64,000 nt of DNA from an uncultured delta proteobacterium (lineage in GTDB: Bacteria > Desulfobacterota > Binatia > UBA9968). The first letter of the stretch is position 1. Every line of letters begins with the position of its first letter. The stretch covers positions 230,948 to 294,947 of the forward strand of contig CAVUVW010000019.1 of the NCBI GenBank assembly GCA_963745035.1, written 5' to 3'. The translations under genes were made by a program, and so were the position numbers. The notes under the pieces are model-generated. The model did not search any database and was not told where the DNA came from. It saw nothing but the letters and a program-made list of their open reading frames with translations. Below, one piece after another: positions 6,976 through 11,579 of the stretch.

Positions 6976-7444
6976 ATGGCAAATTTGGAAGGGCAGAGGG
7001 CTCCAAACTTTACACTGGAAGGGAGCGACGGCAAAAAACACTCGCTCAGCGACTATGCCGGCAAGAACGTTATACTTTGGTTCTATCCGAAGGATGACAC
7101 TCCCGGCTGAACCAAGGAAGCGTGCGGGTTCCGCGACGCTATCGACTCGGTTACCAAAGCAAATACTATCGTCGTCGGCGTGAGCCGAGACAGCATCGAT
7201 TCCCACAATCAGTTTGTCGCCAAATTCAATCTGCCTTTCGTGCTTCTCTCCGATCCGCAAGTCGGCACGATGAAGGCTTATGGCGCTTGGGGCCCGCGCC
7301 AAAACGCTCAAGGCGAGACGGTCGAAGGGCCGATTCGCTCGACCGCTTTGATCGGACCCGATGGAACCGTCAAGAAACACTGGATTCCGGTGGCGCAACG
7401 CGGAAGCCCATCCGGCCGAAGTCTTGGAGTATTTGCAGAAGTAG
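6976..7444 (+). CDS. bcp: Selenocysteine-containing BCP/PrxQ peroxiredoxin (Sec45 = TGA 7108-7110; small 3' frameshift ~7395)
   Basis: GGAGG RBS, ATG 6976, [12 protein letters not shown]...[22 protein letters not shown] in frame at the peroxidatic Cys position; homology continues after the TGA. Confidence 0.88.
7119..7140 (+). promoter_or_regulatory. Candidate bacterial SECIS element
   Basis: AGCGU-GCGG-[GUU]-CCGC-G-ACGCU stem-loop; apical G follows a 17-nt spacer after the UGA; not formed in the Cys paralog. Confidence 0.72.
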
Positions 7445-7550
7445 ATTTTCCGCCGCGCGGGAGCGGCCGACGGTCTTTTAGGCCGCCGCTCTCCCGCGCG
7501 ATCGCTCTGTCCTTCCTGCCCGCGCCGGGACACCGGCAGCGATTTGTGCC

Positions 7551-8464
7551 ATGAGCAAAGTCAAAGCCGATCTCGATCTTCGCAAGCTCGAAATTTTTTA
7601 CTGGGTTGCCGAGCTCAAAAGCTTTTCTCAAGCTGCCGAGCTTCTCTCGCTGCGCCAGCCGACCGTGAGCGCGCACGTGCAGGAATTGGAAGATGCGTCG
7701 GGCGGCAAGCTGTTCTATCGCATGCACGGCCGGGTGAGTTTGACGCCACTGGGCGAATTACTCGCGGAGCACGCTAAAATCCTGCTGGCTTTCAAGCGGA
7801 AAACGCGCGCCGCAGTCGAGCAGTTCCACGGCACCTTGAGCGGCGAGCTATGGGTCGGCGGCAGCAGCATTCCCGGAGAGTATTTGCTTCCCGCCAAAGC
7901 TCGGCGCGTTCACAAAAAAATATCCCGCGCGTCAAGCCGATTCTGCGCATTCGCGATTCCGCCGGGATCATCGAAGACGTGCTCGACGGCAAAGTCGAGC
8001 TGGGTTTTGTCGGGTCCAAGATCGCCGACGCGCGGCTCGCGTTCAAAAAACTATGGAACGATGAGATGGTGCTCGCCGTGCCGAAGGCGCATCCTTGGAG
8101 CCGCCGCAAGTTCGTTCAAATCGCGGAGCTGCGCTCGCAAAAGTTTATTTCGCGAGAACCCGGCTCGGGCACCCTCGAATCCTTCAGCCACCTCCTGTCC
8201 AAAGGCCGGCGCTCGGTAGACAAGCTGTTGGACGTGTCGATGGAGTTGGGCAGCACGCAGGCGGTCATAGAAGCGCTGCGGGGCGGATTCGGAATATCGA
8301 TCTTGTCGCGGATTTCGATCCAGCATGAGCTTGCGGAAGGAAGTCTAGTCGAAGTGCGCGTTCGAGGTTTGACGATGCGGCGCGATTTTTACGAAGTTTC
8401 GCATCGCCGCCGGCCGCTGCACCCGATCGCGCAAGCCTTTCGCGAATTCCTGAAACCTTCCTGA
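7551..8464 (+). CDS. LysR-family regulator resembling selenium-metabolism-associated/CysL-like LTTRs (frameshift in A-run ~7914-7920)
   Basis: LDLRKLEIFYWVAELKSFSQAAELLSLRQPTVSAHV HTH; GGSSIPGEYLLP; SREPGSGT; ELGSTQAVIEALRGGFGISILS. Confidence 0.85.
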
Positions 8465-8512
8465 TCGTCGCACCCTCCACAAGCGTTCCAAACTTTTCGG
8501 GGAAACCCTCTT

Positions 8513-8551
8513 ACATAGGCATTGTCTATGTTGTATATAGATTTCTTCAAT
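8513..8551 (+). promoter_or_regulatory. Tandem LysR-type boxes (T-N11-A)
   Basis: ACATAG-N7-CTATGT (8513-8531, perfect arms) and ATAG-N7-CAAT (8537-8551), 22 bp apart, directly upstream of the EgtB-like gene. Confidence 0.65.
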
Positions 8552-8570
8552 CAAGCGTGGGGAGTTTTTT

Positions 8571-9930
8571 ATGGCGCTTCCATTACGACGCAAAATTCCC
8601 AGCAAGAGCGAAGACCACAGGGAAAAGCTCACGGCTGCGTGGGCGCGCACCGATGAGATTTTCGCAACTGTCCCAAATGCGGAATCGAATACCAGCCCGA
8701 TTGTTTGGCGGCATCCATTCATATTCTATATTGGACACTTGCCGGCATTTTCCTGGAATCAGATCGGTGCGGCGATTCTCAACTGGAAGTCATTCAATCC
8801 TTATTTCGACGATTTGTTTTGCCGCGGCATCGATCCCGACGTCGATACCGGTGAATGTCATTGGCATCCGGAGGTTCCGGAAGAATGGCCAACTTTGGCC
8901 GATACGCTGGAGTACAGAGATCAGGTACGTGCCGCGTTGCTGGAATCTTTCGAGGCGGTGGCCCGTTCAAGCTCATCGGATGTCATGGCGCAGCAGGGAC
9001 GGGTTTTTCAGATGGTTTTGGAGCATGAGTTCATGCACCAGGAAACGCTGCTGTACATGCTGCAGCAGTTGCCGCCGGAGAAAAAGCGCCACCCGGACGG
9101 CTTTTCCCGCTACTTTTTTCAGCGCGCTGCCGGCGGGGCACGAAGTTTTGATCCCCGCGGGCCGGGCGCGCCTGGGCGCAAAATTCGACGAGACGCTTTT
9201 CGGTTGGGACAACGAGTTCGAGGAGATACTCGTCGACGTGCCAGCGTTCACGATCGATTCGCTGCCCGTCACCAACGGTGAATTCTTCGAGTTCGTCGCA
9301 AGTGGCGGCTACGAAAACCAAATCTACTGGCAAGCGGAGGATTGGCGCTGGAAGAACCTGGAGATGAAATCTTGTCCGACGCTTTGGCTGAAACGTGATC
9401 GGGCTTGGTTTTATCGCGCGATGTTCGATACTCTGCCGCTCGCCGAGGTCGCAAGTTGGCCGGTTTACGTGAGTCTTGCGGAAGCGCGGGCCTATGCGAG
9501 CTGGGCCGGCAAGCGGCTGCCGACGGAAGCTGAATTCCATCGCGCGGCCTATTACGGACCGGACGCCCGCGAGACGGACTACCCGTGGGGCAATACACCG
9601 CCGACGGCCCAGCACGGCAATTTCGATTTCGTCTCGTGGTCACCGCTGCCGGTGGGGTCGCGACCCGCGGGCTCGAGCCGCTGGGGCGTTATGGAACTGG
9701 CCGGCAACGGCTGGGAGCTCACGGATACGCCGTTTGCGCCGTTTCCGCGCTTTACTCCGTATATGGCGAGCTATCCGGACTACTCGCGCGACTTCTTCGA
9801 CGGCAAACACTTTGTCTTGAAGGGCGCGTCCTGGGGCACCGCTGCGGACCTGCTGCGGCCGAGTTTTCGCAACTGGTATCAGGCCCACTATCCCTACGTG
9901 TTCGCGAAGTTTCGCTGCGCCCGCAATTAA
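8571..9930 (+). CDS. EgtB/Egt1/OvoA-superfamily non-heme iron sulfoxide synthase (DinB_2 + FGE-sulfatase domains; frameshift ~9115-9135)
   Basis: RHPFIFYIGH, RGIDPDVD..CHWH, EHEFMHQE iron ligands; FGWDNE, RLPTEAEF, GNGWE, YPDYSRDFFDG, FRNWYQ, KFRCA. Confidence 0.85.
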
Positions 9931-9942
9931 GGAGACCGCGCC

Positions 9943-10224
9943 ATGAAAGCGATCTGGGAAAATACCGTCTTGGCCGAATCCGATCACACCGTCGTTGTCG
10001 AGGGTAATCAGTACTTTCCGCCGGCGTCCATCAAACGGGAGTATTTCACCGCGAGCGATACCCATTCTACCTGTCATTGGAAAGGCGTCGCGAGCTACTA
10101 TGACGTCAAGGTGGGCGACAAGACCAACGCCGACGCCGCCTGGTATTATCCGGAGCCGAAGGAAGCCGCCAAATCGATTAAAGATCATATCGCCTTCTGG
10201 CGCGGCGTGACCGTGACCGAATAA
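9943..10224 (+). CDS. DUF427 family protein
   Basis: MKAIWENTVLAESD.TVVVEGNQYFP..TCHWKGVASYY..AAWYYPEPK..IAFWRGV; AAGGAG RBS. Confidence 0.9.
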   Translation: MKAIWENTVLAESDHTVVVEGNQYFPPASIKREYFTASDTHSTCHWKGVASYYDVKVGDKTNADAAWYYPEPKEAAKSIKDHIAFWRGVTVTE

Positions 10225-10245
10225 CTCGCAGCGTCGACGTACCCC

Positions 10246-11038
10246 TTGAAACTTGCATCTTGCATGGCGGAAAACAGCGAAGGCTTCTGCCGCGCGGTCG
10301 CTAGTTTTATCGAAAATCGTATTCGGATTCCCACGCAGTATGTCACAGGCATCCCATGGCAGGAGCGCGAAAGCCTTTTTGATGGCGGCGAAATTCACAT
10401 CTTGTGGCTCTGCGGGCTGCCCTACGTGGAAAAGGCGGACATGGCTCAAAACAAATTGGAATTGCTCGCCGTGCCGACTCCGTGCGGAGAACGCTATCAA
10501 GACCGGCCCGTTTATTTTTCCGATGTTGTCGTTAGGCGTGATCGTCCATTTCAAACTTTCTTCGATCTCCGTGGCGCGTCCTGGGCCTACAACGAGCCGC
10601 GCTCCCATTCCGGATTCAATGCCGTGCGAGCCTATCTTGCCGGATTCGGTGAGCGCGATAACTTTTTCGGCGCGGTCGTCGAATCGGGCGCGCATCACGC
10701 GTCGCTCGAGATGGTCTTGTCCGGCCAAATCGATGGCGCAGCGATCGACAGCACGGTGCTCGAATGGCTCGTGACCGAGCGCGCCGGGCTCGGCGGAGGA
10801 AATTCGCGTGATCGACACTATCGGGCCGAGTCCGATGCCGCCCTGGGTGATATCACGCCAGGTTCCGGCAAAGTTGCGCGACGACATCCGCACTTTGCTG
10901 TTGGGCATGCACACGGAGCCGTTCGGCAGAGTTATGCTTGCTCGCGCGCGGCTTGACCGCTTTGTTGAGGCGGCGGACCGGGACTACGATCCGATTCGAG
11001 TCATGGCGCGGAAGGCTGAACAAGTTTCATTGGCGTAG
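10246..11038 (+). CDS. PhnD/SsuA-fold substrate-binding-like protein without obvious signal peptide (frameshift ~10795)
   Basis: WLCGLPYV, PVYFSDVVV, AYNEPRSHSG, SGAHHASLEMV..GQIDGAAIDSTV, GPSPMPPWV, DRDYDPIR. Confidence 0.8.
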
Positions 11039-11111
11039 CCATTCATGTTACAGCACGTATTTTCAGGCGCCGTGACAGCTCCGCAAATATTGACAAGGGG
11101 GATCATTGAGA

Positions 11112-11579
11112 ATGGCAAACTTGGAAGGGAAGAAGGCGCCGTCCTTTAGCCTCGATGGTAACGACGGCAAGACGCATGCGCTTGATGACTACAAAGGCAA
11201 GACCGTCGTGCTTTATTTTTATCCCAAGGACGACACGCCGGGCTGTACGAAAGAGGCGTGCGGTTTTCGGGAGCAAAGCTCGGCATTGAAAAAGTCCGAC
11301 GTGGTGGTGCTCGGAGTCAGTAAAGACAGCGTCGAGTCGCATAACCGGTTCGCCGGAAAATATAAGCTGCCGTTTACGCTTCTTTCGGATCCCAAAGCCG
11401 ACGTGATGAAGAAATACGGCGCGTTCGGCAAAAAAATGATGTATGGCAAGGAAGTGCAAGGAACCATCCGTTCGACCGTCGTGATCGGCCCCAAAGGCGA
11501 CGTCCTCAAACACTGGTCCACCGTAAAAAAGGCCGAGGCTCATCCGGACGAAGTGCTGGCGTTTTTGAAGGCCCGGTAA
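11112..11579 (+). CDS. bcp: Cys-containing BCP/PrxQ peroxiredoxin, paralog of 6976..7444
   Basis: [20 protein letters not shown] (TGT at 11244-11246); colinear with the Sec copy. Confidence 0.93.
   Translation: MANLEGKKAPSFSLDGNDGKTHALDDYKGKTVVLYFYPKDDTPGCTKEACGFREQSSALKKSDVVVLGVSKDSVESHNRFAGKYKLPFTLLSDPKADVMKKYGAFGKKMMYGKEVQGTIRSTVVIGPKGDVLKHWSTVKKAEAHPDEVLAFLKAR

Follow-up and report, generated by a model that had tools for sequence, protein, structure and literature searches.

A candidate selenium-responsive LysR_Se locus with a conserved operator-like element in an uncultured member of the Binatia

We analyzed a stretch of 64,000 nucleotides (the window) of contig CAVUVW010000019.1 from an uncultured delta proteobacterium of the Binatia (assembly GCA_963745035.1), and within it a cluster of six genes in which two peroxiredoxins (BCP1 and BCP2) enclose a LysR-type regulator, a short operator-like element and an EgtB-like synthase. 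We tentatively propose, with confidence just short of even, that the locus is a local regulon of a bacterial LysR_Se (HrsM-family) regulator. This regulon probably responds to selenium limitation. The cluster consists of the following features, in which Sec stands for selenocysteine and Cys for cysteine:

6976..7444, plus strand: BCP1, a Sec peroxiredoxin of the PrxQ type, with TGA codon 45 at 7108-7110
7551..8464, plus strand: LysR_Se (HrsM-family) regulator, NF040786, HTH_1 and LysR_substrate domains
8515..8540, plus strand: putative LysR_Se operator ATAG-N7-CTAT-N7-ATAG, a conserved spacer motif
8571..9930, plus strand: EgtB-type non-heme iron sulfoxide synthase (NHISS), DinB_2 and FGE-sulfatase domains
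9943..10224, plus strand: DUF427 protein of 93 aa (Pfam PF04248, 114 bits)
10246..11038, plus strand: PhnD-like binding-protein-fold gene (Pfam Phosphonate-bd)
11112..11579, plus strand: BCP2, a Cys peroxiredoxin of the PrxQ type (TPG-C-TKEAC), last gene of the presumed operon

An earlier reading of this DNA from its letters alone (the sequence-only reading) had pointed to two co-directional BCP paralogs with starts 4.1 kb apart, bracketing LysR, EgtB-like, DUF427 and PhnD-like genes. All of these features were found at the positions listed above, profile matches gave the same identities for the bracketed genes, and the arrangement proved to be conserved in related genomes. From BCP1 to BCP2 all genes of the cluster lie on the plus strand, and the two peroxiredoxins, both PrxQ-type, are 59% identical.

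The regulator falls into a family that already bears a selenium label, NF040786, the 'selenium metabolism-associated LysR family transcriptional regulator' (curated cut-off 250 bits). This was the top family for both halves of the split window gene (101.8 and 137.6 bits, a sum of ~239), and intact orthologs reach 250.8-269.1 bits. Comparison with a selenium-associated LysR model, which the sequence-only reading had proposed as a check, confirmed the family membership: the intact ortholog in L046 scores 259.3 bits on NF040786 and 174.6 bits on the next family, a lead of 85 bits. The domains HTH_1 (68.8 bits) and LysR_substrate (128.3 bits) were both recognized. The family is over its cut-off in 19 of 31 genomes of the genus, with at most one copy per genome, and in five more (G000, G003, G009, G019 and G020) the LysR_Se copy of the cluster is split or cut; in a class-wide sample 11 of 121 genomes have a LysR_Se above the cut-off. 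The sequence-only reading knew of no description of such a bacterial Se/S redox switch; a selenium-linked bacterial LysR as such has been published before: the bacterial LysR_Se subfamily was predicted by Lin et al. (2015), and the accessible text of PMC5322559 and PMC9312934 equates it with HrsM, treated in the former as its archaeal ortholog. Our literature search found bacterial work on LysR_Se to be comparative genomics and the remainder archaeal, and did not find a tested bacterial member.

The element between the regulator and the synthase consists of one ATAG-N7-CTAT dyad (8515-8529), then 7 nt, then a third ATAG (8537-8540). A tandem ATAG-N7-CTAT operator had been expected here; the box is present, as a single dyad with a third half-site and not as two full dyads. 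All 13 orthologous LysR-NHISS spacers keep the pattern C-ATAG-N7-CTAT-N4-TA-N-ATAG unchanged, the rest of the spacer being nearly unalignable, and the three-half-site form occurs once in the genome. The T-N11-A form of the dyad is typical of LysR boxes. No published operator for a bacterial LysR_Se was found in our literature search, and we believe that this 26-nt candidate LysR_Se operator is described here for the first time.

To follow the element beyond the genus we used 80 LysR_Se loci gathered with an alignment of six LysR_Se proteins, 79 of which have downstream sequence. An exact dyad lies between -20 and +300 nt from the LysR end in 49 of the 79, and the other 410 kb hold just four dyads; the loci overlap with other collected locus sets and are mutually related, so that these counts do not stand for independent events. 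The dyad follows LysR in 48 of 63 loci with a LysR identity of at least 52% (Binatia-type records) and in 1 of 16 loci at 45% or below (Methylomirabilota, Rokubacteria and Desulfobacterales records). Near-copies are frequent in the loci that have no exact dyad. In other families of the order the box again stands directly after LysR, mostly as ATAG-N7-CTAT followed by TTGACATATAG. This distribution supports the prediction that the box behaves as the operator of the neighbouring LysR_Se.

The wider regulon that the sequence-only reading hoped to reach through further ATAG-N7-CTAT sites was not found: a genome-wide scan gave 16 sites in 7.4 Mb, without enrichment, and no site near selA, selB or selD. 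When up to one mismatch was allowed in the three half-sites there were four genome hits, of which two were the operator itself and none was a credible promoter elsewhere; the others lie on contig C4, between two convergent gene ends, and at 11662-11687, where the match coincides in part with the ribosome site and start of the transglutaminase-like gene that comes next. A second exact dyad was seen at 21690-21704 of the window, inside an unannotated frame of 169 aa.

What stands behind the regulator changes from lineage to lineage. The first recognizable gene after LysR is the binding protein of a 'putative selenate ABC transporter' (ABC, ATP-binding cassette), followed by the ATPase, in 28 loci; this importer binding protein scores 323-359 bits on TIGR04553 (cut-off 250). 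NHISS comes first in 19 loci (plus two with a split LysR), a Cys-type peroxiredoxin (Prx) followed by NHISS in 11, and a membrane protein in one, and nothing was recognized in 19, mostly of the distant group or on short contigs. Mixed cargo occurs as LysR-NHISS-importer (L198), LysR-Prx-NHISS-importer (L223) and Sec-Prx-LysR-importer (L224), and the same-genus genome G051 has LysR-NHISS-DUF427-importer binding protein (358.9 bits on TIGR04553). On the other side of the regulator, 53 of 64 loci show a Prx-type frame upstream of LysR and in the same orientation, with its stop at the aligned peroxidatic position. No protein of the window's own genome passes the TIGR04553 cut-off, the best match being 165 bits. 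In a sister genus (G042, L170:6590-7639) we observed the operator in front of a 350-aa membrane protein that is weakly SO_0444/SaoE-type and efflux-like and that takes the place of importer or synthase.

Comparative evidence indicates that the UGA of BCP1 is real. The gene begins with the ATG at 6976 and its codon 45 stands in the context TPG-U-TKEAC, U45 aligning to the peroxidatic Cys of BCP2. The fold is AhpC-TSA/PrxQ-type (PF00578, 125.9 bits; PrxQ NF053650, 150 bits, under the equivalog cut-off of 260). TGA occupies the peroxidatic position in all 12 readable BCP1 orthologs, and of 24 same-genus genomes 19 have an ortholog, 82-91% identical, with a single in-frame TGA (18 of 23 if the unpublished G005 is set aside). 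We also aligned contigs from four public runs of other samples (X1, X2, X15 and X16) to 6900-11700; positions 7108-7110 are identical to the window in the X1 and X2 DNA contigs and in the X16 RNA-library contigs. Three sequence elements accompany the gene:

6916..6943, plus strand: presumptive promoter-like element of BCP1 (TTGATC, 16 nt, GATAGA)
7120..7139, plus strand: hairpin resembling a selenocysteine insertion sequence (SECIS), 10 nt past the UGA, with a GUU loop
7450..7500, plus strand: GC-rich hairpin after the BCP1 stop, a possible terminator or stabiliser

Among 12 species, the 20 nt of 7120-7139 are the sole invariant run of at least 12 nt in BCP1, and codons that vary at nucleotide level make up 120 of 139 in the whole gene but 3 of 11 in codons 45-55. 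The fold energy of 7100-7170 is no better than that of shuffles (z -0.5, 52 of 200 shuffles) and an Rfam search of 6900-11700 with E up to 5 gave zero matches, so it is conservation that suggests the SECIS-like element. Upstream of the gene, the blocks TTGAT and GTGATA(G/A)A are conserved in a 13-locus alignment; a strict consensus promoter scan did not call the element at 6916-6943. The hairpin after the stop is found in all aligned loci, its arms differing in sequence yet staying complementary. It is followed by a T-run in L045 and L048 and not in the window, and a terminator scan did not call it. Neither of the two BCPs is a PrxU (44 bits for BCP1, cut-off 270). In relatives (L086:2255-2734 and the 53 of 64 LysR_Se loci named above) there is a second, distant Prx-type selenoprotein, FTGG-U-E, 33-40% identical to BCP1; it lies ~2 kb upstream of LysR_Se, past a ygfZ-like gene, and is absent from that place in the window.

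The genes for decoding Sec, whose co-occurrence with the locus had been named as a check, are in the genome: tRNA-Sec (76.7 bits), SelA (592.3), SelB (346.9, split) and SelD (384.6), all above their cut-offs. The host is thus SelD-containing and Sec-decoding, as reported for hosts of LysR_Se. Adjacency of LysR_Se to selA, selB or selD is not seen in this genome, where tRNA-Sec and the sel genes are all on contig C17 and the cluster is on C19; its neighbours are instead the Sec peroxiredoxin and, in relatives, the TIGR04553 importer. In the genus selA was detected in 26 of 31 genomes. One in-frame TGA in selD (G000:C17:318816-319742) makes the selenophosphate synthetase a probable selenoprotein as well.

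The synthase combines DinB_2 (44 bits) and FGE-sulfatase (157.5 bits) domains, and its translation contains HEFMHQE, which we take to be the H-x3-H-x-E iron motif. Its nearest solved relatives are EgtB-IV 8vih (185 bits), EgtB 4x8b (171) and OvoA 8khq (155), and OvsA (118 bits) and SenA (93 bits) are more distant. Among 79 loci with a synthase homolog, 34 are of the LysR/Prx type; 32 of the remaining 45 (homologs in other phyla) have an EgtD-like gene beside the synthase, and a SenB-like gene is near the homolog in none of the 79. Neither of the pathway partners EgtD and SenB is in the cluster itself, and EgtD, SenA and SenB all occur elsewhere on C19. By its gene content the organism has a selenoneine route: SenA (490.8 bits on NF041186, cut-off 420) and SenB (404.5 bits on TIGR04348, cut-off 300) are encoded ~185 kb away on the same contig, as is an EgtD-type histidine methyltransferase that scores right at its curated threshold (288.5-291.1 bits against 290.9). 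Of the 31 genus genomes, 23 have a SenA above the cut-off. The cluster synthase and the SenA of this genome share 31% identity, the genome has no second EgtB-like gene, and these comparisons make the synthase a likely sulfur-type counterpart of SenA. Since SenA and SenB are present and the clade of the synthase is EgtD-linked and SenB-free, both enzymes behind the box, synthase and BCP2, would be sulfur counterparts of selenium systems. According to the available part of PMC13674229 (section 9), substrate and regiochemistry of such synthases are not reliably readable from sequence.

For DUF427 the same paper, as far as available, gives co-encoding with 5.7% of such synthases (Table 1) and no function, and the accessible text of PMC4287342 describes a beta-tent fold in common with MsrB. 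The best solved match of the DUF427 protein is PDB 3djm (38 bits), and a role in sulfoxide handling is our guess. Some further observations concern this chemistry. The complete-looking selenoneine set, ~185 kb upstream of the cluster, spans G000:C19:44546-53639 (L063 and L060), and one separate FGE-domain gene and one fatty-acid-desaturase-like gene lie between its members. One SenA ortholog (G014:C29:295865-297238) and one ortholog of the cluster synthase (G005:C68:44390-45424) each have a single in-frame TGA, by error or recoding. At 17267-19875 of the window, 6-8 kb downstream, there are a cystathionine beta-synthase-like gene (PALP and CBS) and a Cys/Met-metabolism enzyme dependent on pyridoxal phosphate (PLP); a PLP lyase of the Cys/Met type could provide the C-S cleavage step that is missing from the cluster.

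An operon ending in BCP2, as the sequence-only reading had it, is plausible: the 13-locus alignment shows no conserved element before BCP2, which makes a unit running from the EgtB-like gene to BCP2 acceptable. Contigs of the RNA libraries cover BCP1 (7050-7524), the end of LysR through the box into NHISS (8449-8774), the DUF427/PhnD-like junction and BCP2; BCP1 is left uncovered by X15 and 7544-11085 by X16, which is not a measure of differential expression. The coverage is weakly compatible with expression in soil, given that DNA carry-over is possible.

The window shows frameshifts in four of the six genes (BCP1, LysR, EgtB-like and PhnD-like). One extra window base at 7394 in BCP1 is absent from the X1 and X16 contigs, two near 7894-7927 in LysR from X1 and X15, one at 9130 in the synthase from X2, and one at 10791 in the PhnD-like gene from X1. 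Removal of these bases restores single frames exactly, and the same genes are intact in relatives assembled from short reads. From the independent contigs and the intact relatives it follows that the frameshifts of the cluster are assembly errors and not decay. The few-contig genomes G003, G015 and G019 of the genus likewise have split genes at the locus. In the window's own assembly, the contamination of which is 5.8%, the ygfZ-like gene (5755-6958) and selB (G000:C17:316680-318567) are also each split in two frames, which fits indel errors throughout a few-contig assembly.

In the mechanism that we favour, LysR_Se would bind ATAG-N7-CTAT-N7-ATAG at 8515-8540 and control a single transcript for the synthase, DUF427, a cytoplasmic PhnD-like protein and Cys BCP2. 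BCP1 would remain outside this unit, being placed upstream of the regulator, behind a promoter-like element of its own and with a hairpin past the stop. Sister lineages carry the same regulator and site before a putative selenium-oxyanion ABC importer, or before importer/synthase mixtures, which suggests that the unit fills the cargo slot of a selenium-status regulon. When selenium is low, import would be raised and sulfur versions would be made, with ergothioneine-type chemistry instead of the selenoneine of SenA/SenB and a Cys-PrxQ beside the Sec-PrxQ. We regard induction at low selenium as about twice as likely as the opposite, since the importer is the commonest cargo, since both cargo enzymes here appear to be sulfur versions of selenium systems, and since HrsM of Methanococcus maripaludis represses Cys isogenes at adequate selenium and transporter transcripts of that archaeon rise upon selenium depletion (PMC11097638, in its available text). 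A more specific version joins all of this in one regulator and one 26-nt operator that spare selenium at two levels, with import raised and both a selenoprotein and a selenium metabolite replaced by sulfur versions (Sec-PrxQ by Cys-PrxQ, and selenoneine by ergothioneine with DUF427 as an unrecognised helper); taken as a whole we consider it possible and, on balance, doubtful.

Several observations weigh against the proposed low-selenium regulon. The Sec/Cys state was read in 22 distinct loci with both paralogs readable, naming first the copy nearer the upstream side of LysR, or first in the operon, and then the last copy: U,C in 11, U,U in 6, C,U in 3 and C,C in 2. Fourteen of the 22 combine a Sec with a Cys copy, and BCP2, which closes the unit behind the box, is Sec in 9 (6 of the 17 loci with a window-like arrangement); in three variant loci Cys and Sec copies stand within one operon. 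A selenoprotein inside a unit induced by low selenium is awkward, and Sec-BCP2 in nine loci together with a dyad abutting a -35-like hexamer favours the opposite direction. The Cys-BCP backup of the sequence-only reading, with Cys behind the box and a Sec BCP1, is thus what this genome has, but it is not a fixed design, BCP2 being so often Sec. Of the LysR-controlled low-selenium thiol-antioxidant module proposed there, the LysR family and the conserved box stand, and the fixed backup falls away. In a tree of 57 Prx sequences, rooted through a long outgroup branch and with many forks open, the Sec-BCP1 clade (21 rows) is monophyletic and nested within Cys forms from behind the box in variant loci, and Sec forms of BCP2 branch near the base; we infer that the Sec/Cys state changed several times. 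The promoter scan called no canonical promoter at the operator site, and gaps of 134-197 nt before BCP2 in L044 and L042 give room for an internal promoter. The intact synthase ortholog is under all curated cut-offs: EgtB TIGR03440 (218.3 bits of 360), OvoA TIGR04344 (247 of 400) and SenA NF041186 (226.4 of 420). The near-complete genomes G007, G004 and G023 of the genus have selA and SenA with no LysR_Se match, so that the locus is accessory, and dispensable for selenium use. The selenium link of NF040786 and TIGR04553 in bacteria is itself drawn from gene context.

It is useful to ask which other explanation could account for the same locus. With the same regulator and site the logic may be reversed, a selenium-derived signal switching on a unit for handling selenium or for defence against selenium-driven oxidative stress; the thiol-histidine and the peroxiredoxin could then deal with by-products that selenite reduction generates, or a selenium substrate could be what the synthase and DUF427 act on. 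We judge this rather unlikely. It would fit well with BCP2 as a selenoprotein in 9 of 22 loci, which suits induction in the presence of selenium, and with the operons of G051, L198 and L223, where the synthase and DUF427 stand together with the putative selenium importer. In importer-type loci the dyad moreover abuts a TTGACA hexamer, and a dyad abutting a -35-type hexamer is in a position typical of activators. Against it, importers of scarce nutrients are usually induced by the lack of the nutrient, the only studied member of the family represses at adequate selenium, the clade of the synthase is EgtD-linked and never SenB-linked, and carbon-selenium chemistry is already covered in this genome by SenA and SenB. 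The presence of ABC_peri_selen among the neighbours of such synthases (Table 1 of PMC13674229, in the part available) speaks again for a reversed signal. Less probable still is a general oxidative-stress island with a regulator that senses no selenium, where the selenium label of the family would be guilt by association. All cargo of the window is antioxidant in kind, its split LysR sums to less than the cut-off, and the literature search returned no tested bacterial member; yet 28 loci carry a transporter as cargo in place of an antioxidant, 53 of 64 loci have a Sec-type Prx upstream of LysR, and the family is reported solely in SelD-containing organisms in the accessible text of PMC5322559. 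A conserved Cys for a switch of the OxyR type is also lacking: the lone Cys of the L046 LysR protein is Ala in the window, which argues against a thiol switch.

Two further explanations concern the element and the DNA itself. The 26 nt could be a promoter or the site of another factor, with LysR incidental and the peroxiredoxins ordinary paralogs drifting between Sec and Cys. The region of the third half-site does resemble a -10 or -35 hexamer (TATATA here, TTGACA in relatives), the Sec/Cys state changed several times on the tree, and the plain dyad is unenriched genome-wide; but the element travels with the LysR gene as the downstream gene changes, has the dyad form of LysR boxes, and is missing after LysR homologs of 45% identity or less, and we consider this explanation improbable. 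Finally, the TGA and the broken frames might mark a decaying or mis-sequenced locus without any selenoprotein system, for which the four frameshifted genes and the assembly contamination could be cited. We give this next to no credence and regard it as refuted, because the TGA is kept across the genus (19 of 24 genomes) and in the independent contigs, which also lack the extra window bases, the genes are intact in short-read relatives, and there is RNA-level constraint directly past the TGA. The preferred reading thus remains a local LysR_Se regulon that probably answers to low selenium.

The surroundings of the cluster are given here for completeness. To its left lies

5755..6958, minus strand: ygfZ/GcvT-like folate-binding gene (Pfam GCV_T and GCV_T_C)

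a gene that points away from the cluster and that a frameshift breaks in two in the window, with a promoter-like site on the minus strand at 6881-6853. It is the conserved left anchor of the locus, syntenic in 11 of 12 fetched loci (L050 starts at a contig end), and it also anchors LysR_Se loci in other families. The right flank is the transglutaminase-like gene, which has its own strong promoter-like site at 11616-11643. Within the cluster the PhnD-like gene is optional in the genus (5 of 12 fetched genus loci, and the window); room for a signal peptide is lacking, the preceding gene ending 22 nt upstream, and the ortholog in L049 scores 87.9 bits on PhnD and 66.2 bits on TIGR04553. Further along the window (13118-17083, 21889-25666 and 29383-35038) there are at least three sets of molybdenum hydroxylases of the xanthine/CO dehydrogenase type, each with FAD, 2Fe-2S and MoCo subunits, and one of them adjoins an ABC transporter.

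Little has been described of selenium sensing and economy in bacteria; the sole studied regulator of the family is archaeal, and its bacterial branch is otherwise a prediction from gene neighbourhoods. The locus offers a candidate operator defined to the single base, a regulator present in single copy per genome, and target operons that vary by lineage (importer, peroxiredoxin, or EgtB-type synthase with DUF427). It ties ergothioneine-type chemistry and its unexplained DUF427 partner to selenium status, and the selenoneine genes of the same organism suggest that substitution between selenium and sulfur may extend from proteins to small-molecule antioxidants. The peroxiredoxin pair around the regulator gives a testable picture of how a soil bacterium may respond to selenium supply.

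How does this locus compare with known systems? In the CysB/Cbl regulons of sulfate starvation, scarcity of the element leads a LysR-type regulator to induce an ABC importer together with element-sparing proteins; the element there is sulfur, and the comparison is an analogy only. Among Sec peroxiredoxins, a Prx family (COG1225 Bcp) with the TxxU motif is listed in the available part of a table in PMC9312934, and BCP1 resembles it in its Bcp/PrxQ fold and in the U of TPGU. It is distinct from PrxU of Eubacterium acidaminophilum; a resolving Cys follows the U at five residues (UTKEAC), and the protein stands in a fixed pair with a paralog that alternates between U and C. The synthase has the DinB_2 and FGE-sulfatase architecture of EgtB, EgtB-IV and OvoA, and its clade is EgtD-linked elsewhere. 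In contrast to these enzymes it lacks a methyltransferase domain, and neither EgtD nor a C-S lyase adjoins it; its partner is DUF427, it stands behind a candidate operator of a selenium family, and it falls under the curated cut-offs. With the sen cluster (SenA, SenB and SenC) it shares the enzyme superfamily and the occurrence of ABC_peri_selen transporters near such genes, and it is set apart by its low identity to SenA and by the missing SenB in the neighbourhood of all 79 homologs.

Closest in logic is HrsM of Methanococcus voltae and M. maripaludis, which controls Cys isoforms of selenoproteins in the same genome, with transporters going up on selenium depletion. The pair of Cys BCP2 and Sec BCP1 has this form in our genome, whereas in nine of the 22 loci the peroxiredoxin behind the box is Sec. 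HrsM is archaeal and targets isogenes of hydrogenase and formyl-methanofuran dehydrogenase; here the host is a bacterium, a peroxiredoxin and an EgtB-type synthase are the putative targets, and relatives offer an ABC importer as a further one. The bacterial LysR_Se of Lin et al. (2015) corresponds to NF040786, whose cut-off the orthologs pass, and the host here has, as expected, SelD and the Sec-decoding genes. It was described adjoining selA, selB and selD and was proposed as a regulator of Sec decoding, whereas our regulator, on another contig than the sel genes, neighbours a Sec peroxiredoxin and an operon behind a defined candidate operator. What appears to be new here is a bacterial HrsM-family regulon, predicted by comparison, with a defined candidate operator, a cargo that varies by lineage, and two putative selenium/sulfur pairs.

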